From assembly GCA_020431825.1 (NCBI GenBank), contig JAGQHN010000008.1, forward strand, positions 6,167 through 70,166: a DNA stretch of 64,000 nucleotides, written 5' to 3'. Below the pieces are notes generated by a model. That model worked only from the letters and a program-made list of their open reading frames with translations. It searched no databases and was not told the origin of the DNA. The DNA is from Trueperaceae bacterium (lineage in GTDB: Bacteria > Deinococcota > Deinococci > Deinococcales > Trueperaceae). Both the position numbers and the translations under genes were made by a program. Positions 715 to 25,690 of the stretch are shown here, piece by piece. The number at the start of each line of letters is the position of its first letter. Position 1 is the stretch's first letter.

Positions 715-1728
715 ATGAAGCTCGAGTACCTCAACAAAATCATCATCGGCGGCTGGCAACTCTCTCAGGGTCACAGCGAAGCCTCACAAACCGAAGCGCT
801 CAAAGTCATAGAGAGTTACTACGCAGCAGGTTTCAGGGTTTTTGACTGCGCTGATATTTATACGGGTGTTGAAGCAAACATAGGAAACTTTATACGGGCA
901 CACGGACTGGGACCAGACGACATAAAAGTCCATACCAAGTATGTGCCTGATATGACGATGCTCGAGACTCTGACCTTTGAGCAAACCGAGGTGATTATTG
1001 ACCGCTCACGCTCGAGGCTTGGGCTCGAGCAACTTGACCTGGTGCAGTTTCACTGGTGGCACTACCCTAGCGGTAGCTACTTAGCGGCACTTGATAGCTT
1101 GAAAAAGCTCAAAGAGCTGGGCAAACTAAGAGAAATTGGTCTGACGAATTTTTCTGCTGAGCGTGTTCAGGGTATCGTTGACCACGGCATTCCGGTAGCC
1201 TCAATCCAGGTGCAATACTCAGTGATAGACAGGCGAGCAACAAAGAGGCTCGAGCAAGTCACCCAGGCAAATGACATCCAGTTGCTATGCTATGGCAGCG
1301 TAGCTGGCGGGCTTTTGTCTGACCATTATTTAGACAAAAGCGAACCTCAGGAACCTCACGAAAACCGCTCGCTGACCAAATATCTCCTTATGGTTGAAGA
1401 AATGGGCGGTTGGGATGCTTTGCAAGCTCTTCTAGGTGTTTTAAGAGCCATTGCCAATACGCACAACACAGATATTGCCTCGCTTGCTTCGGCCTATTGT
1501 CTGGCGCAAGCTGCGGTGCGCGCCTGCATTGTTGGCGCACGAAATACCAAACATCTGCAAGAACATGTGGCATTAAGGGATGGGCTCGAGCTTTCCGCAA
1601 CAGAACTCACACAAATTGAAACCGTCCGATCAAAGTTTAAAGCCATTCCTGGTGACGTTTACGAACTCGAGCGCGATGTCGAGGGCAGACACGGACGCAT
1701 TATGAAATACAACCTCAATAAAGGTTAA
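715..1728 (+). CDS. aldo/keto reductase family oxidoreductase
   Basis: 337 aa with AKR-like segments (FDCADIY, LDLVQFHWW, IGLTNF). Follows the permease gene by 18 nt. Confidence 0.75.
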   Translation: MKLEYLNKIIIGGWQLSQGHSEASQTEALKVIESYYAAGFRVFDCADIYTGVEANIGNFIRAHGLGPDDIKVHTKYVPDMTMLETLTFEQTEVIIDRSRSRLGLEQLDLVQFHWWHYPSGSYLAALDSLKKLKELGKLREIGLTNFSAERVQGIVDHGIPVASIQVQYSVIDRRATKRLEQVTQANDIQLLCYGSVAGGLLSDHYLDKSEPQEPHENRSLTKYLLMVEEMGGWDALQALLGVLRAIANTHNTDIASLASAYCLAQAAVRACIVGARNTKHLQEHVALRDGLELSATELTQIETVRSKFKAIPGDVYELERDVEGRHGRIMKYNLNKG

Positions 1729-1752
1729 ACCTTACATTTTACCCGGGTGATA

Positions 1753-1781
1753 TTGACAAACAGATTTTACCCGGGTAAAAT
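1753..1781 (+). promoter_or_regulatory. sigma70-type promoter TTGACA-17 nt-TAAAAT; predicted start site coincides with the ATG at 1788 (leaderless mRNA)
   Basis: TTGACA at 1753-1758 and TAAAAT at 1776-1781 with a 17-nt spacer. The ATG begins 7 nt after the -10 hexamer and has no Shine-Dalgarno sequence. Confidence 0.6.
1764..1781. promoter_or_regulatory. 18-bp perfect palindrome ATTTTACCCGGGTAAAAT overlapping the -10 element; candidate operator
   Basis: Perfect dyad read directly from the sequence. A 13-nt copy, ATTTTACCCGGGT, is repeated at 1736-1748, upstream of the -35 element. Confidence 0.55.
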
Positions 1782-1787
1782 TAAGCT

Positions 1788-2357
1788 ATGCAAACGAATG
1801 GTACATTTACAAGCTTTCACGATGTTCAAAAAATAGCTTCGGGTACTCTAGCTGAAACCCTGGCAACGACAAGAACTTACTTGGATAGTCAAGGTTTAGC
1901 CAAAGATCAGGGATCGCTGGAGCATTTGCTCATTTTTCACGACCAAACCGGCAGACAGGTCGAGTTTGATTTGCGTGGCACCTCCCAAGAGGTTCTGGAG
2001 CGCAACCTGCCCCAACCCGAAACCACTGGTCCAGGCAGACCAAAATTGGGCGTTGTGTCTAAAGAAGTCACCCTTTTGCCTCGCCACTGGGAGTGGCTCG
2101 AGTCGCAACCCAAAGGTATTTCAGGAACACTAAGGTTACTGGTCGATGAAGCGCGCAGACATAGCCCGGCAGTTAGTGCCAAAAAGCTCGAGGCTATAGA
2201 TAAATTTATGCTTGCTATGGCCGGCAATTTAGCAGGTTATGAAGAAGCCTCGAGGGCACTTTACAGCAGAGATTTTGATCGCCTGGAAAGGCAAATAAGT
2301 GCTTGGCCAGAAGACATTCAGAGCTTTGTCAGGGATAGACTGGCAGCTGGCGACTAA
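1788..2357 (+). CDS. hypothetical protein, DUF2239-like (recalled from memory), possibly DNA-binding
   Basis: 189-aa ORF directly behind a strong promoter. The central GRPKLGVV...LLPRHWEWL segment resembles DUF2239 proteins. Confidence 0.55.
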   Translation: MQTNGTFTSFHDVQKIASGTLAETLATTRTYLDSQGLAKDQGSLEHLLIFHDQTGRQVEFDLRGTSQEVLERNLPQPETTGPGRPKLGVVSKEVTLLPRHWEWLESQPKGISGTLRLLVDEARRHSPAVSAKKLEAIDKFMLAMAGNLAGYEEASRALYSRDFDRLERQISAWPEDIQSFVRDRLAAGD

Positions 2358-2400
2358 ACCTTTTTAAAGTTATTCTTTAAAAGAATGCTAGGCTTTCACT

Positions 2401-2739
2401 ATGCCTGGCATTTTTAAACTTTATGACCTGAAAGTCGAAATTGTAGCCGTCAAAGAGGGGCTCGAGGACATCTGCAATCATCATATCGGTGACTATTTTG
2501 AAGTCTCAGGGGAAAACCTGAGCATTCCAGCCGGAAAAACGTTTAGCATGTATGCACTAGCAGCAGTTTTGCCGCTCCTGCCAGCTAAACAACGCCTAAC
2601 CGATGAAAGCGACTGGATGAGCACAGACGATCTTGTTATGTGTCCTGACCCTAACTGTCAGGCAGTTATGAAAATTAGTCGAACCGGCATTCGTGAATTT
2701 CGCACTGAAGATGTCACAGTTGTCGCAAGCTCTGACTAA
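2401..2739 (+). CDS. small Cys/His-containing protein, TIGR04076-like
   Basis: 112 aa with CNHHIGDYF and CPDPNC segments. Family assignment is from memory only. Confidence 0.45.
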   Translation: MPGIFKLYDLKVEIVAVKEGLEDICNHHIGDYFEVSGENLSIPAGKTFSMYALAAVLPLLPAKQRLTDESDWMSTDDLVMCPDPNCQAVMKISRTGIREFRTEDVTVVASSD

Positions 2740-2853
2740 ACCCTCAAAAAGACATTCTTCGTTTTAAATCATTGGTAAGATCTTCAAACAAATCCAAACT
2801 AGAGACGGTTACGGTTTTTACCCAACCTTCTTATCCCTCAAGGAGTCAGCGCC

Positions 2854-3591
2854 ATGATTCAAACCCCAGATATCCAGCGTCCACCCAAGGAAATTGTCGA
2901 AGGTCTCAAGCGTATTGGCAGCGCTACCGCCAGTGGTGAACTGAGGCGCATGGGCATTCGTGATTCACAGATTCGTGGTCCGGTTGGCTGGACACCCGGT
3001 ATTACGGCGGCTGGCCCAGCACTAACCTTACAGTTTATGCCCTTAAGGGAAGACCAGTACAAAGAAGAAGAATATGGTGACCCCGAAACCCAGCTTCACC
3101 GCCATGTGCTCTACCATACGCAACCTGGCGATATGGTCGTGGTTGATGCCAGAGGCGATATGGCCAGTGGTGTTTTTGGAGAAATGATGCTGACCTACTT
3201 TAAAGGTCGCGGTGGTTCGGGGGTCGTCATAGATGGCTGCATTCGTGATTACCCAAGCGCCAAAGAGCTTGGACTGGGTCTTTGGATAAAAGGCGTTACG
3301 CCTAACTACCATACCCAAACAGGTATTTTCCCTTACGCTGTTAATGTACCCATTGCCTGTGGGGGTCGCCTGGTTATGCCCGGTGACATTATTGTGGCAG
3401 ATGAAGATGGGGTTGTCGTTGTGCCTGTTGGTTTGGCAGCTGACCTTTTAGGCCATGCCAGAGAGCACGCCGAGTGGGAGGTCTTTTCCAAGATGAAGCT
3501 CGAGCAAGGCGGCGACCTGCGCAAGTACTATCCTTTAAGCAAAGAGGGTTGGGCAGAGTACGAAGTCTGGCGCAAAGAGCAAAACAAGTAA
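2854..3591 (+). CDS. RraA family protein (4-hydroxy-4-methyl-2-oxoglutarate aldolase / oxaloacetate decarboxylase-like)
   Basis: GEMMLTYFKGRGGSGVVIDGCIRD core typical of the RraA/DlpA fold. AAGGAG ribosome-binding site 8 nt upstream of the ATG. Confidence 0.7.
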   Translation: MIQTPDIQRPPKEIVEGLKRIGSATASGELRRMGIRDSQIRGPVGWTPGITAAGPALTLQFMPLREDQYKEEEYGDPETQLHRHVLYHTQPGDMVVVDARGDMASGVFGEMMLTYFKGRGGSGVVIDGCIRDYPSAKELGLGLWIKGVTPNYHTQTGIFPYAVNVPIACGGRLVMPGDIIVADEDGVVVVPVGLAADLLGHAREHAEWEVFSKMKLEQGGDLRKYYPLSKEGWAEYEVWRKEQNK

Positions 3592-3606
3592 AACTATTCA
3601 TGTCTG

Positions 3607-3648
3607 GGATCAGTAGTCAAAGCAGGCTGCTGATCCTCCTTTATTTTT
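3607..3648 (+). terminator. rho-independent terminator after the RraA-like gene
   Basis: 10-bp stem GGAUCAGUAG/CUGCUGAUCC (one G-U pair) followed by the tract UCCUUUAUUUUU. Confidence 0.65.
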
Positions 3649-3665
3649 AAAAGAGGGTAATCGCT

Positions 3666-4694
3666 ATGAAGGTACTTATAACAGGTGGTACAGGTGACAT
3701 AGGCAGTGCCGCCAGCAAACGTTTTTTAGAACTAGGCTGGGATGTTCATATCATTGATCTAAAAGATGAAATGGATATGGCTCCAGTTACTTACGCAAAG
3801 TGCAACATCATGGACTTTGATGACCTCAAAGAGCAAATGGAAGGCTGTGACGCGGTGGTACATATGGCAGCCATACGCGCGCCCACCATCGCACCTAATC
3901 CAGAAGTTTTTCGCATTAATGTAGCTGGCACCTTTAATGTCTACGAGGCCGCCGCGCAACTCGGCATCAAACGGGTCGTACAGGCCAGTTCCATCAATGC
4001 GATTGGCTGTGTCTGGAGTATTGGCGACATTCACCCGCAGTATTTTCCCCTTGATGAAGAGCACCCACGGTTTACGACCGATTCCTATTCTTTATCGAAG
4101 CAAATGGTTGAAGACCTGGCTGAGTATTTTTATCACCGTGACGGCATTTCGGGCGTTTCCTTCCGCTTTCCCTGGGTTTATAACCGCGAAAAACATATCA
4201 ATGAAGGCTATTTTGAACGCATGCGCACTAACCGCGACAATGTGCTGGCGCTGTTTGAGCAAAGTCCTGAGGACCAAAAGAAAAGACTCGAGCGCCTAAA
4301 GACAGAGGTTCTGGCGTTTCGCAAGACGAGGCCGCTCGAGTATGCTCAGGTCAAAGACCGCAAACATCCTTTTGCCCAGGATCACGCTGACCCACTGTGG
4401 CGTTTTTATGCTTTTGACCGCTTTGACTACTGGGTCAATCTGGATGACCGTGACGCCGCGCAAGCTATCGAAAAAAGCGTAACATCTGACTATGAGGGAA
4501 GCCACCCTCTTTTTGTCATGGCACCCAAAAACACTCTGGGCATAAGCAGTCGCAAACTTGCCGAAACTTTCTATCCTGAAGTTGTAACCTGGAAAAAAGA
4601 TATACAGGGCGCCGAGGCTCTGGTCAGTAGCGATAGAGCAAGAGCACTGATTGGTTTTGACCCGCAGTACCAGCTAAGCCTTCCAGATGCCTAA
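3666..4694 (+). CDS. NAD-dependent epimerase/dehydratase family protein
   Basis: N-terminal Rossmann motif VLITGGTGDIGS. Extended SDR length of 342 aa. Confidence 0.7.
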   Translation: MKVLITGGTGDIGSAASKRFLELGWDVHIIDLKDEMDMAPVTYAKCNIMDFDDLKEQMEGCDAVVHMAAIRAPTIAPNPEVFRINVAGTFNVYEAAAQLGIKRVVQASSINAIGCVWSIGDIHPQYFPLDEEHPRFTTDSYSLSKQMVEDLAEYFYHRDGISGVSFRFPWVYNREKHINEGYFERMRTNRDNVLALFEQSPEDQKKRLERLKTEVLAFRKTRPLEYAQVKDRKHPFAQDHADPLWRFYAFDRFDYWVNLDDRDAAQAIEKSVTSDYEGSHPLFVMAPKNTLGISSRKLAETFYPEVVTWKKDIQGAEALVSSDRARALIGFDPQYQLSLPDA

Positions 4695-4839
4695 AAATGA
4701 CTGCCTCATTATGCTGTTGCCTGGTGAATAGTTTTTCAAAGCTAAACAATTCCTGGCAAAAACAAAGCTCAAAGAACTTAGTTCTCAATCTATTTTATAG
4801 ACCGCCGATTATTTAGTGGAACATGAGGTTTTAATCTAA

Positions 4840-5973
4840 ATGCACTTTACTACTTTATCCCACCCGAGAAAGCTATTTGTTCAACTTGTATTTCTGGCAT
4901 TGTCCTTTTTAATAGGATCATTAACAAAAGCCCAAACTGTCAATGTCAATAGTTCTTTAGCCAAACAATTACAAGAACGTTTGGATACTTCTGTCGATAG
5001 TTCAGGGGCAGCGGGTGCTGTACTCTTTATTCAAAGCCCTAGCTTTACATGGATAGGCTCGAGTGGTTTTGCTGATCTGGAGCAAAAGCGCTCTATGAGT
5101 ACTGATGACGCCTTAAGACTTGCCAGTATGACCAAGACTTTTGTTAGCGTCACAGTTTTAAAACTTGCCGAAGAAGGAAAAATTGCTCTGGATGATCCTG
5201 TTACAAAGTATCTATCTACCCCGGCAGTTAGTGCCATTCCTAATAGTTCAGAAATAAGTATTCGACACCTGCTAGCCATGACAAGTGGCGTTTTTGATTA
5301 CACCGATAGTGATGACTACAATGATGCTATCGAAACGTTTCCTGAACGCCGCCCCTGGAAAGCTGAAGAGGTGCTGGCTTATATCCCTCTGGAAAATGCC
5401 CTCTTTCTCCCGGGAGAAGGCTGGAGCTATTCCAATAGCAATTACGTCTTGCTTGACTTGCTTGTTAAAGAAGTCAGTGGGACTTCTCTGGCGAGTGAAA
5501 TCAGACGCATTATTATTGACCCTTTAGATTTGCAGCATAGCTTTATGGAGATACAAGAGCCTAGGCCGGGGGGATTTGGTGGTTTAAAAGTGCGAGGTTA
5601 TGAAGAAGGAGAAGATGTTACCGAAATTCAAGATGCTTTAGGTCTGGGCGACGGGGGTCTTATCTCTACTGCTTATGAAGTAAGTCAGTTTCTAAAAGCC
5701 CTCTTTACCGACAAGTCACTAATCAATGACGAAATGCTTTTAGAGATGCGGAAATTTCATCCTCAAGAAGATTATGGTTTAGGTCTCGAGCGCCGTGAGA
5801 CCCAGTTCGGTACAGCATGGGGACACAGTGGGGCGTCATCTGGCTTTCAAGGTGATATGCTGTATTTTCCCGAAAAGGATTTTATCTTTGTATTGTTAAG
5901 TAATACGATGGATACAGATCTTTGTGACATCATTTTCAGTGAAACCATGGACCTTATAAATGCCAATGAATAA
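4840..5973 (+). CDS. secreted serine hydrolase (beta-lactamase class C / DD-peptidase-like)
   Basis: Signal peptide, SxxK motif (SMTK) and YxN motif (YSN). Confidence 0.75.
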   Translation: MHFTTLSHPRKLFVQLVFLALSFLIGSLTKAQTVNVNSSLAKQLQERLDTSVDSSGAAGAVLFIQSPSFTWIGSSGFADLEQKRSMSTDDALRLASMTKTFVSVTVLKLAEEGKIALDDPVTKYLSTPAVSAIPNSSEISIRHLLAMTSGVFDYTDSDDYNDAIETFPERRPWKAEEVLAYIPLENALFLPGEGWSYSNSNYVLLDLLVKEVSGTSLASEIRRIIIDPLDLQHSFMEIQEPRPGGFGGLKVRGYEEGEDVTEIQDALGLGDGGLISTAYEVSQFLKALFTDKSLINDEMLLEMRKFHPQEDYGLGLERRETQFGTAWGHSGASSGFQGDMLYFPEKDFIFVLLSNTMDTDLCDIIFSETMDLINANE

Positions 5974-6051
5974 CCTTTACCAAATATCTCTACGAGCTAT
6001 TTTCAACTTATTCACAACTTTGTTTAACGAAACAACCTACTAGGAGTCAAT

Positions 6052-6885
6052 ATGCGTCTGGGTGGCCCTTGCAATAGTAAAGATTCACCAGAAAGCTGGG
6101 TAGCTGAACTTAAACGCCTGGGCTACCGTGCTGCCATTTTCCCTTTCAAACATGATGCCGATAGAGAAACCTCTCATGCTTTTGCCAAAGCGGCAGAAGA
6201 AGCAGATATTTTACTGGCCGAAGTTGGTGCCTGGTCAAACCCTATGAGTCCAGACGACAACGAACGTAAGCAAGCGATTTCTTTTTGTCAGGAGCAGCTT
6301 GCACTTGCCGACGAGATTGGCGCGCGGTGCTGTGTAAATATTGCAGGCTCGAGAGGTCACCGTTGGGACGGTCCGCACCCTGAAAACTTAAGTCAGGATA
6401 TGTTTGCCCTGATTGTTGAAACCACGCAGCAAATCATAGATGCGGTAAAACCAAAACGCAGTTTTTACTGCCTTGAAAGCATGCCCTGGGTTTTTCCTGA
6501 TTCACCCGAGAGCTATCTAGACTTGCTTAAAGCTATTGATCGACCTGCCTGCTCGGTACACTTTGACCCGGTCAATATGATCTCGAGCCCACAGCGCTAC
6601 TTTCGCAATGCCGACTTTTTGCGCGAATGTTTTCGCTTACTTGGCCCTCAAATCAAAAGCTGCCACGCCAAGGACATCAAATTGCAAAAAGAATTGACTG
6701 TTCACCTTGATGAAGTGCGCCCGGGTCAGGGATTTTTAGACTATGAGGTGTTCCTGAATGAACTGAACAAACTGGACCCGGATACACCCCTGATTATCGA
6801 GCACCTCCCTAATGATGAGGAATACCGACTGGCAGCTGAACATATTCGTGACGTGGCCAAGCGTTTAACCATACCTGGGGTCTAA
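6052..6885 (+). CDS. sugar phosphate isomerase/epimerase (xylose isomerase-like TIM barrel)
   Basis: 277 aa with the family pattern (CVNIAGS, HFDPVN, HAKD, IIEH). AGGAG ribosome-binding site upstream. Confidence 0.65.
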   Translation: MRLGGPCNSKDSPESWVAELKRLGYRAAIFPFKHDADRETSHAFAKAAEEADILLAEVGAWSNPMSPDDNERKQAISFCQEQLALADEIGARCCVNIAGSRGHRWDGPHPENLSQDMFALIVETTQQIIDAVKPKRSFYCLESMPWVFPDSPESYLDLLKAIDRPACSVHFDPVNMISSPQRYFRNADFLRECFRLLGPQIKSCHAKDIKLQKELTVHLDEVRPGQGFLDYEVFLNELNKLDPDTPLIIEHLPNDEEYRLAAEHIRDVAKRLTIPGV

Positions 6886-17890: not shown

Positions 17891-19072
17891 TTAGCTAGGT
17901 TCTGCCGTCGTTTTAAAGTCTGACGCTGCAGTCTGCAAGGCAGGATTACTGAGCGACAGGGTTATGACCAGTGCTGGAATAAGCAAAAGCCCCAAAACTG
18001 TTAAGGTTGGTACCACACCAAATCTCTCAACAAGCGGGCCAATAATGCCGTAGAGTAAACCAGCAAAGCCCCAGGTAAAGCCCATAAGCAGACCCGAGAC
18101 AGTTGCGATCTGCTTGGGTTCATATTCTTGTGCCATCGCTACTGCAACCGGAATACCGGCATTCATAAGGGCACCTGCCAGGGCTAAAAGGGGTATATAC
18201 AACCACGACTCAGGTCGAAACAGCATAAGGGCAGCGTAAATGGGTAAAGACCCCACCATGGTCATAACCAGAACTCGCTTACGCCCAACGCGATCCGATA
18301 AGGTGCCTCCAATAAAGGTGCCTGCAACGGCTGCAAAACTATAGATACTCAAGGTTATTGCCATCTGTGCGTCAGATATACCGCGCTGAGCAAACCAGAA
18401 GGGAATAGTGGTAGAAAAGCTCATAAAGGTAACGTTTCGCAGGGTAGAAATCGCCCAGAGTTTGGCAACTTCGCCGCGAAAAACTCTGGCCAAATCACGA
18501 AAGCTCGAGGGCTTAGCATCTATGTTAATGGGCGGTGCCTGCCGCATAAGCAAAAAGGCTGCCACCGCGCCTAAAGGCGTAAGCAATGCCAGCCCTTTAA
18601 GCCCCACCCCATTTTCCATACCTACCGCCACCATCGGCGCCATGGCAATACCAAACATACCCGATGAGGCAAAAAAGCTCAGCCAGAAGCCCTTTTTGCC
18701 AGCAGGGGCGTACTGACCTGCCAGCGCTGCCCCCGAAGAGTGAAAAAGGGCCGAACCCAAACCTGCTACGGACAGTGAAATAGCCATAACGATTAGATTT
18801 GGATAAAAACCCAGAAAGCCAAAACCCAGCACCACCAGAAGAGGCCCAATCGCTGCCAGCAAACGCCGGTCATAGCGGTCAGCAATAAGACCAGCAACGG
18901 GCTGCAAAAGACTACTCGAGAACGAGTAAATCGCCACAACCAGCGAAACTGCCGCATAACTCACGCCAAATCTACCCTGCAAACTGGGCAAAAGGGGCGC
19001 TAAGAAAGAGCTAAACATGTCGTTACAGATATGTAAAAAAGAAATTATTAAAGGCAGCACGAGCATGAGCAT
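17891..19072 (-). CDS. MFS transporter
   Basis: 393 aa with about 12 TM segments and an MFS loop motif (ADRYDRR, SDRVGRKR). Confidence 0.85.
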   Translation of the reverse strand: MLMLVLPLIISFLHICNDMFSSFLAPLLPSLQGRFGVSYAAVSLVVAIYSFSSSLLQPVAGLIADRYDRRLLAAIGPLLVVLGFGFLGFYPNLIVMAISLSVAGLGSALFHSSGAALAGQYAPAGKKGFWLSFFASSGMFGIAMAPMVAVGMENGVGLKGLALLTPLGAVAAFLLMRQAPPINIDAKPSSFRDLARVFRGEVAKLWAISTLRNVTFMSFSTTIPFWFAQRGISDAQMAITLSIYSFAAVAGTFIGGTLSDRVGRKRVLVMTMVGSLPIYAALMLFRPESWLYIPLLALAGALMNAGIPVAVAMAQEYEPKQIATVSGLLMGFTWGFAGLLYGIIGPLVERFGVVPTLTVLGLLLIPALVITLSLSNPALQTAASDFKTTAEPS

Positions 19073-22082: not shown

Positions 22083-22916
22083 TTATGAGCCTTTTTCGTC
22101 AGCATTGTTACGTTGTCTCCTCTACTTATTGCCCGAAGCCATTTTACTTGCTGCAGGTAATCGTCTTAACCACCACATACTGATAAAACCAAAGACTGGC
22201 CCCAGTGCCAAAATCATAAAAGCGTAGCGCCAACTAAGCCAAGCTTCTAAAGGTGGAATCATCCGAATGGTAAAGAGCGTTAGCAAAAAACCCATACTGG
22301 TTTGCATGGGTGCGCCAAGAAGCGCATATTTGTAATGTGTCTGATGACACCTTTAGGAGATTAGCAGCCTAATGAACCGTTGGGGCGTAGCCACTATATA
22401 CTCACGTAGAGGTGAAATAGCTGCCCCTGAAAGGCGGGTTGAGAGTCAACAGCAGACTCAAGATGACTCCGCTTGGTTGAGGAATGATATGATTAGTAAA
22501 GCGAACATCGGTCTAGTCGGGATACCCAGCTCCAGTCGAAACGCTGTTGGAGTCAATAAAATGACTCAAACGACTGTACGCACTCCTGCACCATCTACCA
22601 TGCTTGGCGCAGGACATCACATGGCCGTGGATGACAACCCTTACGCTAATTTGGGAAGTCTGTGCGTAGACACTCTCAACCTGAGAGCTAAAAGACATAC
22701 GATGAATCTAAGTCATTCCGTTACAGTACAAATATGTGAACTTGGGAAGGTTATGCGGGGAGTCATGAGTATGACAATGAAGCGCATAACTGGCGGAGCC
22801 GCCGTAGTAGTCCGAGACAGGGAAAGCCTGTTACAAGGCAACTTGCCATGGCGAAGGGCGGCAGTCCGAAACCTCTCTAATGCAAAGGTACTTAATGAAC
22901 AAGTTGGTGAATATCA

Positions 22917-24623
22917 ATGAATATTAAGGAAATGCAAAAGAGACTTAGTTTCTGGAGTATGGAAGGCAAAAAGATGAATAATGTCTACAACCTTCTCTAC
23001 GACAGAACATTCTTAGAGGCCGCTGCTAACAAAGTGTTAAGCAATGCTGGCAGCATAACGGCAGGATGTGATGGCATCGACAGATACGTCTTCGACAGAG
23101 ACTTCGACTATCAAATAAACAAGATAGCCGAAGAACTCAGAGAAGGAACTTTCGAGCCATACCCGGTACGGAGAGTCAATATTCCCAAAACAAACGGGAA
23201 ATTAAGACCTCTAGGTATCCCATCCCTCAGAGACAGGGTAGTACAGGAAGTGCTCCGCATGGTACTGGAACCCATCTTTGAACCTCAATTCAGCGAAAAC
23301 TCATTCGGCTTTAGGCCAAACAGGAACACTATTCAGGCCATCAAATATCTGACCCATTACCAGTCTGCGCAAAGCAAGTATTACTGGGCCGTTGAAGGGG
23401 ATATTCAGTCCTACTTCGACACGGTTAACCACCGCAAACTCAGCAAGCTTGTAGGGCGCCGGGTAACGGATAAGAAAGTTCTTGACCTGATATGGAAATT
23501 CCTAAGAGCGGGTGTTATGGAGAAAAGGTTATTCAAGAATACTGAAAGCGGCGTGCCGCAAGGAGGCATCTTGAGCCCCTTATTAGCCAATATCTACCTG
23601 AATGAGCTAGACCAGTTTGTTGGACATGAACTTGGAGCCAACTTCACAAGAACTCAGATATACTACCGCCAAGGCAAAGGGTTACCTACCTTCGGCTACG
23701 TAAGATACGCTGACGACTTCGTGCTAGTGGTAAGAGGTACAAAACAACAGGCCCAGGAAGCCAAAGACACTGTCATTAACTTCCTGACGGAAAAGCTCAA
23801 GCTCACGGTCGCGCCAGAAAAAACCAAGCTGACACACATTGCAGAAGGCTATGAGTTCCTTGGTTATGAATTGCTGAGAAGAGACATGGGATACGGTACA
23901 TTCAGCACGTCAACCTATATACCTATGAAAGCGTCCAAGAAAGCGCTAGCTAAACTAGAGCAAATGCTGGACAAAGCAACGTATAACCACTCTGTTATCG
24001 ATAAGATAAGAGCGGTTAATGCGTTCACCACGGGGTGGTGCAATTACTACAAGTACGCCAATAATAGCACAGTAGTGTTTAATTGGCTGAGTGATAAAAC
24101 GCATCATCTGTTTGCACACTGGCTAGCTAGAAAGCAGAAAAGCACAATTGCAAAGCTCTACGCAAGCAACGTGTACAAGGACACCAACTGGGTATATCAA
24201 GGGTTTACACTGAAACGGGCCACAACCATTAAAAGGGTAAGTATGCGACAAGTGAAATTCAAAGACATTCTCAATCCCTACCTAGACGAAGGATTGATTG
24301 TCAGAGAAGAATTACTTGTTTCGGACAAAGCCTGGGGCGGCAGCTCAAAACGCCGCACCGCCGACCTCCGCATGACCGTATTGCAAGAACAAGGTTTTGA
24401 ATGTAACCACTGTCATAAAGAATTAAGCTTTGAGACAGCAGAATTGCATCATAAAAGCCCATTCAAGCGGTACAAGAACGTGGACTCTGCTAACCTCAGA
24501 GAAAACGTCGAAGCGTTATGCAAAGAATGTCATTTAACAGAAACTAGGAAATTTCGGATGGAAAGCCGGATGCAGGGAAACTTGCACGTCCGGTTTGGAG
24601 GAGAGGGTGAGCCTAATGGTTAA
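22917..24623 (+). CDS. group II intron reverse transcriptase/maturase with HNH endonuclease domain
   Basis: RT motifs (GVPQGGILSPLLANIYL, RYADDFVLVV), maturase X domain (TGWCNYYKYAN) and En domain (CNHCH...HHK...CKECH). The 3' end of the ORF reads through domain V. Confidence 0.9.
   Translation: MNIKEMQKRLSFWSMEGKKMNNVYNLLYDRTFLEAAANKVLSNAGSITAGCDGIDRYVFDRDFDYQINKIAEELREGTFEPYPVRRVNIPKTNGKLRPLGIPSLRDRVVQEVLRMVLEPIFEPQFSENSFGFRPNRNTIQAIKYLTHYQSAQSKYYWAVEGDIQSYFDTVNHRKLSKLVGRRVTDKKVLDLIWKFLRAGVMEKRLFKNTESGVPQGGILSPLLANIYLNELDQFVGHELGANFTRTQIYYRQGKGLPTFGYVRYADDFVLVVRGTKQQAQEAKDTVINFLTEKLKLTVAPEKTKLTHIAEGYEFLGYELLRRDMGYGTFSTSTYIPMKASKKALAKLEQMLDKATYNHSVIDKIRAVNAFTTGWCNYYKYANNSTVVFNWLSDKTHHLFAHWLARKQKSTIAKLYASNVYKDTNWVYQGFTLKRATTIKRVSMRQVKFKDILNPYLDEGLIVREELLVSDKAWGGSSKRRTADLRMTVLQEQGFECNHCHKELSFETAELHHKSPFKRYKNVDSANLRENVEALCKECHLTETRKFRMESRMQGNLHVRFGGEGEPNG
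24563..24596 (+). ncRNA. group II intron domain V
   Basis: AAGCCGGAUGCAGG-GAAA-CUUGCACGUCCGGUUU: 34 nt with the AGC triad, a 2-nt AC bulge and a GAAA tetraloop. Confidence 0.85.
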
Positions 24624-25690
24624 ACCATGCAACTTGCTCTTATCCTACTCAGCGCTGTACCCACATAGCGGGCATCACTAAGTTCGCTCACCGCGGTACT
24701 GAACTGAGCACTGTCTGCGACCACTGCAAACCCCCAAATCAGACAGAGCAAGGTGAGAAAAACAGGAGAATTAAAGAAAAACCCGGCTACCAGGGCTATG
24801 CTTCCTGAAATCACCAAACTTATCATTGTTATACGTGTGCGGCCCAGGCGGTCAGCGAGCTTGCCAGCCAGTAAACTTCCGAGACCGCCTACAGCAATGA
24901 CACTAAAACCAGCCAACCTGGCAGCCGCGGTACCTAGACCTGCCCTCTCATAGCTTGCGAGTAAGAAAAGGGGTACCCAGGCCCACATGGCATAAAGTTC
25001 CCACATATGCCCTAAATAACCAAAATTTGCCAACCTGACGCCTTTGTCAGAGAAAGCTTTACCTGCTAAGCGCCAGTTGAACTGTGCAGCTTTGCCCAGA
25101 TAAGGCCCTTCCCTTACAAACAAGATGCTAATGATCGCTGAGATGATTGCTAGAGCTGAGGCTAAAAACAGTACCAGACGCCAGTTAGGTACGGTTCCTG
25201 ACCCTGTGAGTTCAGGGATGACATTGAGCAGATGAGGCGAAGCCGAGCCAATCGTAAGTGCCCCAACCAGCAAACCTATACCAAAGCCGCGGTCTTCTTT
25301 GCACCAGGTTGCCATGAGTTTCATGCCCGGTGGGTAAACGCCCGCCAGACTAATGCCCGTGAGAAAACGAAGAATGAGCGCGGGGCCAATGTCATTGACA
25401 CTCAGTGCAATCAGGGCATTAAAGCTCGAGCCCAAAAAGGCACTCACTGTAAAAAGGACCCTGGCACTCACCCTGTCTGCCAGATTAAGCACAGCACTTG
25501 CCAGTGCCCCAACCACAAAGCCAATCTGCACACTCATGGTCAGCCAGGACTTTTCTGCCCCTGTCAGATTCCAGGCAAGCGTTAATTGTGGGATGACTGC
25601 CGAAGCTGAAAACCACAGGGCCATAGCAAAAAGCTCTGCCAGAGCTAAGAGATAAAGGCTTTGACGTTTCCCCGGAAGGCGTGTCACAAA

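Follow-up and report, generated by a model that had tools for sequence, protein, structure and literature searches.

The 64,000-nt window analyzed here (assembly GCA_020431825.1 of a Trueperaceae bacterium, contig JAGQHN010000008.1, positions 6,167 to 70,166) carries on its plus strand, at 22310-24648, a full-length group II intron of 2339 nt that runs from 5' GUGCG to 3' CCUAC and interrupts a minus-strand gene for a major facilitator superfamily (MFS) transporter. Both conserved group II intron ends are kept, the 5' GUGYG as GUGCG at 22310-22314 and the 3' AY as the last bases of ...CCUAC at 24648. The Rfam family for group II intron domains V and VI (DV-DVI), RF00029, matches 24561-24648 on the plus strand with 66.2 bits (E 8.5e-11; gathering score, 40) and is the sole family above its gathering score in the whole 64-kb window. 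Two minus-strand open reading frames (ORFs) flank the intron, one of 355 aa (24620-25687) and one of 61 aa (22122-22307). When 22310-24648 is excised in silico on that strand, so that 25687..24649 is joined to 22309..22122, a single 1227-nt ORF results, and its 408-aa product matches MFS_1 (E 9.7e-26, residues 14-356). The ORF, Rfam, and Pfam positions agree with the opposite orientations that an earlier note, made from the sequence alone, had assigned to the intron with its reverse transcriptase (RT) gene and to the MFS gene. We consider it highly probable that a mobile IIA-type intron inserted recently, by reverse splicing and antisense to the MFS gene, and that the gene is broken as a result. 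Coordinates are collected in Table 1.

One gene accounts for both flanking ORFs, which are its two halves. The joined protein has thousands of homologues, and its closest uninterrupted orthologues are exactly 408 aa long (P0243, ~96% aa identity; P0001, 91%; P0004, 78%). Across 14 aligned sequences, the motif at the junction, GTAL-T-MQTS, is free of gaps, with G343, T344, L346, T347, Q349, and T350 invariant. Moreover, a contig from another sample, L164 (Logan SRR23848403, 2199 nt), encodes P0243 and carries the empty site, its alignment to the window breaking exactly at 24649 and 22309; L164 is thus the empty-site allele of a very close relative, the kind of intron-less comparison that the earlier note had proposed. 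The boundaries cannot slide, since the bases on either side do not match (G at 22309 versus C at 24648; G at 22310 versus T at 24649), and the empty-site allele together with the invariant junction motif makes them certain. The earlier note had derived their precision from restoration of the reading frame. Exact they are, but the frame does not prove it: with boundaries shifted by up to 6 nt either way, the frame survives for one third of the pairs, and its restoration alone is therefore weak evidence. No target-site duplication was found at the insertion, as expected of a group II intron.

These breakpoints also bear on the possibility that a repeated intron was mis-joined into the MFS gene during assembly. 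The source is a contig of a metagenome-assembled genome (MAG), and group II introns are often present in multiple copies and can break or mis-join assemblies. An artefact of this kind is nevertheless scarcely credible here, given that both junctions are base-exact against an independent empty-site contig, that exon-binding site 1 (EBS1) and the delta nucleotide of the intron are complementary to the flanking exon bases, which a random mis-join would not yield, and that neither the window nor ~5.8 billion proteins nor the JGI metagenomes yielded a second copy.

A plus-strand host gene, which would make the intron sense oriented, was ruled out: no stretch open across the empty site on that strand exceeds 61 aa, which leaves the MFS gene as the only one at this site, with the intron antisense to it. 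The insertion splits codon 347 as A|CC, inside an invariant hydrophobic segment (YVGTALTMQTSxGFLLTLFTIR) that we take as transmembrane segment 11 (TM11); the final hydropathy peak, TM12, lies at approximately residues 371-394. Because it is antisense to the gene, the intron should not be spliceable from the MFS mRNA. The earlier note had expected truncation after about 346 native residues, and the ORF indeed comprises 346 native residues followed by 9 from the intron complement (SRIRASCMV), 355 aa in all. A transporter that retains only half of TM11 and no TM12 very probably represents a null allele. The product is deposited as NCBI MCA9835869.1, a 355-aa "MFS transporter" whose disruption is not flagged. 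The interrupted gene is not related to the other MFS gene of the window, at 17891-19072; the two share 32% identity across 50 aa.

On the minus strand the MFS gene follows genes for Ppx and AKR and precedes one for a CPBP protease. The part of this operon organization described in the earlier note as AKR-MFS-CPBP is kept in the closest relative, L164, but not throughout: in L001, AKR-MFS is kept and a different gene stands downstream in place of CPBP, and in L002, the MFS gene directly follows Ppx and AKR is absent. Co-transcription, and a polar effect of the intron on the downstream CPBP gene, may be plausible. In L164, gene calling splits the CPBP homologue (1579-2198) into two ORFs (1579-1920 and 1920-2198), which suggests a frameshift or an assembly error.

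The intron has a G+C content of 46.0% and is not distinct in composition from its surroundings. The contig, attributed to a Trueperaceae MAG, has 47.6% G+C overall; cultured Truepera has a much higher value, roughly 68%. The GC skew of the plus strand (-0.037) is too weak to serve as a guide to replication direction.

To describe the ribozyme, the 5' 610-690 nt of the intron were aligned with those of three related metagenomic introns (L083, L084, and L088), and an RNAalifold consensus was computed for the window and these three relatives. All four begin with GUGCGCCA(A/C)GA and have many conserved blocks in common. Of 144 consensus pairs, 75 show a compensatory double change in at least one sequence. 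The window intron forms 119 of the 144, and the pairs that it fails to form are concentrated in a poorly aligned stretch of subdomain DId, in which its architecture differs. The single-sequence minimum free energy (MFE) fold of 22310-22870 (-183 kcal/mol, z = -2.8) has the same closing stem of domain I (DI), DII, and DIII as the consensus. The DV-DVI region folds with z = -4.8 and aligns with five relatives. At the zeta tetraloop receptor, the three relatives have UAUGG/CCUAAG and the window intron has UAUGA/UCUAAG, a compensatory change from C-G to U-A. Domains I-IV, whose absence the earlier note had regarded as one way its reading might fail, are present and foldable in both the consensus and the single-sequence folds, and DI-DVI carry many compensatory changes relative to related introns. 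Judged from its sequence, the intron looks complete and fully functional and is apparently still active. A 182-aa ORF (22372-22920, plus strand) that overlies ribozyme DI-DIII matches no Pfam family and can almost certainly be dismissed as spurious.

The intron-encoded protein (IEP) matches the Pfam families RVT_1 (E 2.4e-42), GIIM (E 5e-8), and HNH (E 8e-5) and scores 350 bits against NCBIfam TIGR04416, the group II intron RT/maturase family (cut-off, 300). Every invariant column of a 21-sequence alignment is kept, including Y264, A265, D266, and D267 as well as C496, C499, H512, N530, C535, C538, and H539, and the endonuclease (En) domain is predicted to be intact. The ORF starts in DIV, continues across the whole of DV, and has its stop, a TAA, in the DVI loop (24621-24623); the IEP ORFs of relatives terminate at a UGA arising from the GAAA-loop region of DV, e.g., CAUUGAAAGG in L083. 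One TTAA palindrome is common to the TAA of the IEP and the stop of the truncated MFS ORF (24620-24622, minus strand). The databases hold one exact entry for the IEP, NCBI MCA9835868.1, and among ~5.8 billion proteins the next best are only 44-46% identical. Its best match among solved structures is LtrA, with 213.6 bits, followed by GsI-IIC, the 7uim RT/maturase, and the 6me0 maturase RT, with 170-177 bits; we take LtrA to be of class ML, GsI-IIC of class C, and 6me0 of class CL. Some relatives of the IEP give weak PF01348 matches. Searching plasmids by tblastn with the IEP returned matches at most 37% identical, all named "ltrA" and carrying no class information, and a profile scan of genome contigs with the IEP alignment, which depends on generic RT patterns (YADD and PQGGxxSP), had introns 29-41% identical and no close relatives among the matches listed.

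Recognition of the 3' exon by a delta-delta' pair, with delta adjoining EBS1, as opposed to an EBS3-IBS3 interaction (IBS, intron-binding site), is a hallmark of IIA introns (PMC4424553). The delta-delta' mode is found in the window intron; the EBS3 alternative was not searched explicitly. Together with the En domain and the best structural match to LtrA, this mode leads us to assign the intron provisionally to the IIA structural type, with an IEP of class ML or A.

Five metagenomic introns whose IEPs are 44-46% identical to that of the window could be analyzed for orientation (L083, L084, L088, L094, and L095). In silico excision restores plus-strand ORFs in all five, i.e., each lies in sense orientation, and several of the host genes are typical of mobile elements. 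The antisense copy in the window is thus the exception among these analyzable relatives. The earlier note had called the arrangement an unusual gene-killing configuration; as a natural find it is unusual, with five of five relatives in sense orientation, but the mechanism is well known (PMC3898094). A further intron with an IEP 44% identical, in L096 (~2930 to ~5300), has the 5' end GUACG, not GUGCG, and has minus-strand genes on either side, one of them a CHAT-domain ORF (5482-6078). This intron may be another instance of opposite orientation in the lineage. In L084, DVI (3255-3401) is ~90 nt longer than in other family members owing to an insertion between the DVI strands.

The pairing between intron and exons bears on the choice of target. 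Read in the orientation of the intron, the 5' exon ends ...AUA CUGGUUU GCAUGG and the 3' exon starts with U. EBS1 (CCAUGC) is placed by the MFE fold in a hairpin loop, UCUA-CCAUGC-U (22594-22604), and forms six of six Watson-Crick pairs with IBS1 (GCAUGG); directly 5' of it, delta A22597 pairs with the +1 U (24649). Across all six family members, the top EBS1 candidate occupies the equivalent loop, and the nucleotide 5' of it pairs with exon position +1 in every one (A:U, C:G, U:A, U:A, U:A, and A:U). The IBS/EBS check suggested in the earlier note therefore gives a complete pairing at EBS1 and a partial one at EBS2. Two other candidates were set aside. For EBS1, CCGUG (22625-22629), taken from MAFFT columns, was considered, and CCAUGC was preferred for its 11-nt loop with the family layout UC..-EBS1-U. 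For EBS2, CCAGU (22532-22536) lies in a predicted stem, and the EBS2 loop of the relatives is a GGG...CCC hairpin.

Compared with the L164 allele, the joined MFS gene has a dS of 0.27 and a dN of 0.018 (dN/dS, 0.067), and there are no stops or frameshifts in its 1227 nt. The insertion thus appears recent, in line with the undecayed exons described in the earlier note, and the gene would have been under purifying selection for nearly the whole time since its split from L164. On the window branch, polarized with L001, there are 8 nonsynonymous and 32 synonymous changes. The nonsynonymous-to-synonymous ratio (N:S) is 5:29 in the 5' part versus 3:3 in the 61-codon 3' fragment, a contrast that is not significant (Fisher p = 0.08-0.10), and the three nonsynonymous changes in the 3' fragment (G372S, R393W, and E399A) are all at conserved positions. 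It is these changes, and the higher N:S of the 3' fragment, that would favor an old insertion into an MFS gene long dead as a pseudogene, its intact frame a coincidence. Such a history is improbable: besides the lack of significance of that contrast, it would have to accommodate 1227 nt without a stop or frameshift, a low dN/dS maintained against an allele at a dS of ~0.27, the retention of all invariant family columns, and a relative-rate comparison in which 12 versus 8 lineage-specific changes do not differ significantly.

The apparent purifying selection on the 5' part also bears on a different alternative, namely, that the antisense insertion was tolerated or favored, either through adaptive loss of the transporter or with the 355-aa and 61-aa fragments acting as a working split transporter. 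Some MFS proteins, e.g., LacY, can work as separately expressed fragments, and an in-frame ATG (22307-22305, Met348) starts the 61-aa fragment right after the junction. However, the break falls in the middle of TM11 and not in a loop, no Shine-Dalgarno-like sequence precedes the ATG at 22307 (the upstream sequence being the reverse complement of the intron 5' end), and the low N:S is equally explained by a very recent insertion. We regard this alternative as unlikely; a knockout or split transporter that is selectively maintained is less likely than one that is just a transient deleterious hit.

A recent antisense insertion by reverse splicing remains the reading that we favor, and several observations weigh against it. 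By hand count from the alignment, EBS2 pairs only partly with IBS2 CUGGUUU (-13..-7), with 4 contiguous pairs and 5/7 in total; the homologous EBS2 loop in L083, L084, and L088 pairs 7/7, 6/7, and 7/7 with its own -13..-7 bases. This imperfect EBS2-IBS2 pairing could reflect drift of the intron after insertion and not an ectopic site. The intron is known from a single copy, with the nearest IEP 46% identical. Since the contig derives from a MAG, the occupied allele may be one population variant only. In the 1.7 kb that precede the intron, the plus strand showed no sigma-70-like promoter, and a promoter and terminator scan gave the same counts as shuffled controls and is uninformative on intron transcription. 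The intact anatomy suggests that the intron may still be active.

A search for further copies returned no second copy of the intron in the 64-kb window and no IEP homologue above 46% identity among ~5.8 billion proteins, and an exact scan of JGI metagenomes for a 26-mer of DV revealed neither a second copy nor another insertion site among 65 metagenome contigs. The 26-nt DV core, GGATGCAGGGAAACTTGCACGTCCGG, is identical in these 65 contigs (L099-L163), all of other lineages, and the IEPs present there are only 33-42% identical to that of the window; identity in DV is therefore not a marker of close relatedness.

Ectopic insertion sites of group II introns resemble the homing site (PMC2435150). 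In the window, ten 5' exon bases from -15 to -6, TACTGGTTTG (22295-22304), are identical to those at L083 (3308-3317), even though the hosts are unrelated (MFS antisense versus DNA methylase sense) and the IEPs are 45% identical. Bases of TACTGGTTTG outside the -13..-7 segment that EBS2 explains may reflect recognition by the protein. Because the EBS2 pairing is imperfect and the relatives lie in sense orientation in other genes, the site is most likely ectopic, resembling the usual target of the lineage by chance. We infer this ectopic status, the intron being known from a single copy. A more specific version holds that the intron represents a previously unsampled IIA-type lineage in Deinococcota, caught soon after an endonuclease-dependent ectopic jump into a housekeeping-type gene whose antisense strand mimicked the ancestral target shared with L083 in TACTGGTTTG; we treat this version as speculative and rather doubtful.

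The events at this locus can be pictured as follows. The intron RNA would have reverse-spliced into the DNA strand complementary to the MFS coding strand, at a target set by the six EBS1-IBS1 pairs, the A-U pair of delta-delta', and the partial EBS2-IBS2 pairing. Reverse transcription would have come next, by retrohoming or retrotransposition. Target-primed reverse transcription is the likely route, because the En domain appears intact, and the event would be of the retrotransposition type, into a chance look-alike of the lineage target. The MFS transcript would then contain the intron complement, which forms no ribozyme and could not be removed, and translation would end 9 codons into the insert to give the 355-residue protein.

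Table 1. Features of the interrupted MFS locus and its intron (window coordinates), the empty-site allele, and five related introns (coordinates of the respective contigs)
Feature	Coordinates	Strand or orientation	Details
MFS 5' part	24649-25687	-	Codons 1-346 and first base of codon 347
MFS 3' part	22122-22309	-	Last two bases of codon 347, codons 348-408, and stop; second half of TM11 and TM12
Gene gaps		-	Ppx-AKR, 64 nt; AKR-MFS, 3 nt; MFS-CPBP, 39 nt
Target 5' exon	22296-22309	+	IBS2 CUGGUUU, 22297-22303; IBS1 GCAUGG, 22304-22309; delta' U, 24649
Domain I	22315-22745	+	Closing helices and subdomains with compensatory changes; MFE fold concurs
Zeta tetraloop receptor	22488-22492 and 22707-22712	+	UAUGA and partner UCUAAG; DV loop is GAAA
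EBS2 loop	22522-22529	+	AUACCCAG; hairpin GGG-loop-CUC
Delta and EBS1	22597-22603	+	Delta A22597; EBS1 CCAUGC, 22598-22603; 11-nt hairpin loop UCUACCAUGCU
Domain II	22749-22791	+	9-bp helix; compensatory changes in 8/9 pairs
Domain III	22794-22868	+	Includes conserved CGUAGUAGUCCGAGA...GGCGAAGGG...GCAGUC core
Domain IV	Start near 22890	+	Holds IEP ORF
IEP	22917-24623	+	568 aa; RT (YADD), maturase X, and HNH endonuclease domains
Domain V	24563-24596	+	34 nt; AGC triad 24564-24566, 2-nt bulge, GAAA loop; Rfam alignment and fold
Domain VI	24599-24646	+	Single bulged branch-point A at 24642, 7 nt from 3' end
L164, nt 1-1351	Window 25999-24649		94.3% identity
L164, nt 1352-2189	Window 22309-21462		95.0% identity
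L083 intron	3323-5731	Sense	Host gene: N6/N4 DNA methylase
L084 intron	931-3401	Sense	Host gene: tyrosine recombinase; junction LLGH|KDVRTTMIYTHV
L088 intron	1479-3865	Sense	Host gene: ParB-like protein
L094 intron	2828-5233	Sense	Host gene: M15 peptidase
L095 intron	2841-5224	Sense	Just before host ORF stop; 3' exon begins TAG (5225-5227)

Among known systems, the window intron most resembles Ll.LtrB and other IIA (ML-class) introns that encode RT-X-D-En proteins. It shares with them an IEP with RT, X, and HNH En domains and LtrA as best structure match, the 5' GUGCG, a DV GAAA loop and an 11-nt-type zeta receptor, EBS2 and EBS1 in DI loops, and 3' exon recognition by a delta directly 5' of EBS1. 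It differs in that its IEP is 46% identical to the nearest relative and 37% identical to the best plasmid-borne match, in its host, a Trueperaceae (Deinococcota) MAG, and in an IEP ORF that runs through DV into DVI. Within its own family, it has the same 5' end, DI-DIII architecture, DV, DVI, and positions of the EBS2 hairpin and EBS1 loop as L083, L084, L088, L094, and L095. Unlike these five, which are sense oriented and have IEP ORFs ending in the DV loop, it has a rearranged DId and a compensated zeta receptor.

The insertion itself resembles the ectopic retrotransposition of Ll.LtrB in having a good IBS1 and delta' and a weaker IBS2, and in affecting an ordinary chromosomal gene and not a mobile element; the difference is that the ectopic status of the window site is deduced. 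Ectopic chromosomal retrotransposition is also known for RmInt1. In targetron practice, antisense insertion is a routine knockout, an unspliceable and hence non-conditional disruption (PMC3898094). The configuration and outcome are the same here, a host transcript with an unspliceable intron complement, whereas the window case is natural, with the ORF of the intron still in place and the target selected by wild-type EBS sequences. A literature search for published natural antisense cases gave only targetron and integron-associated examples. What we describe is a sequence-divergent example of a known process, neither a new kind of element nor a new mechanism.

For public databases, the finding identifies an annotation error, as the "MFS transporter" MCA9835869.1 is a truncated fragment. 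The divergent and apparently intact IIA-type intron and RT from Deinococcota may be of interest for RT mining and as a targetron scaffold. Most bacterial group II introns are found outside housekeeping genes (PMC4424553, PMC8632793). The locus described here offers a clean natural case in which an antisense intron would inactivate an ordinary chromosomal gene, with an empty-site control; the empty-site allele and the cognate EBS/IBS pairing show how the site was selected, and the case exemplifies the cost that keeps conserved genes free of bacterial group II introns.

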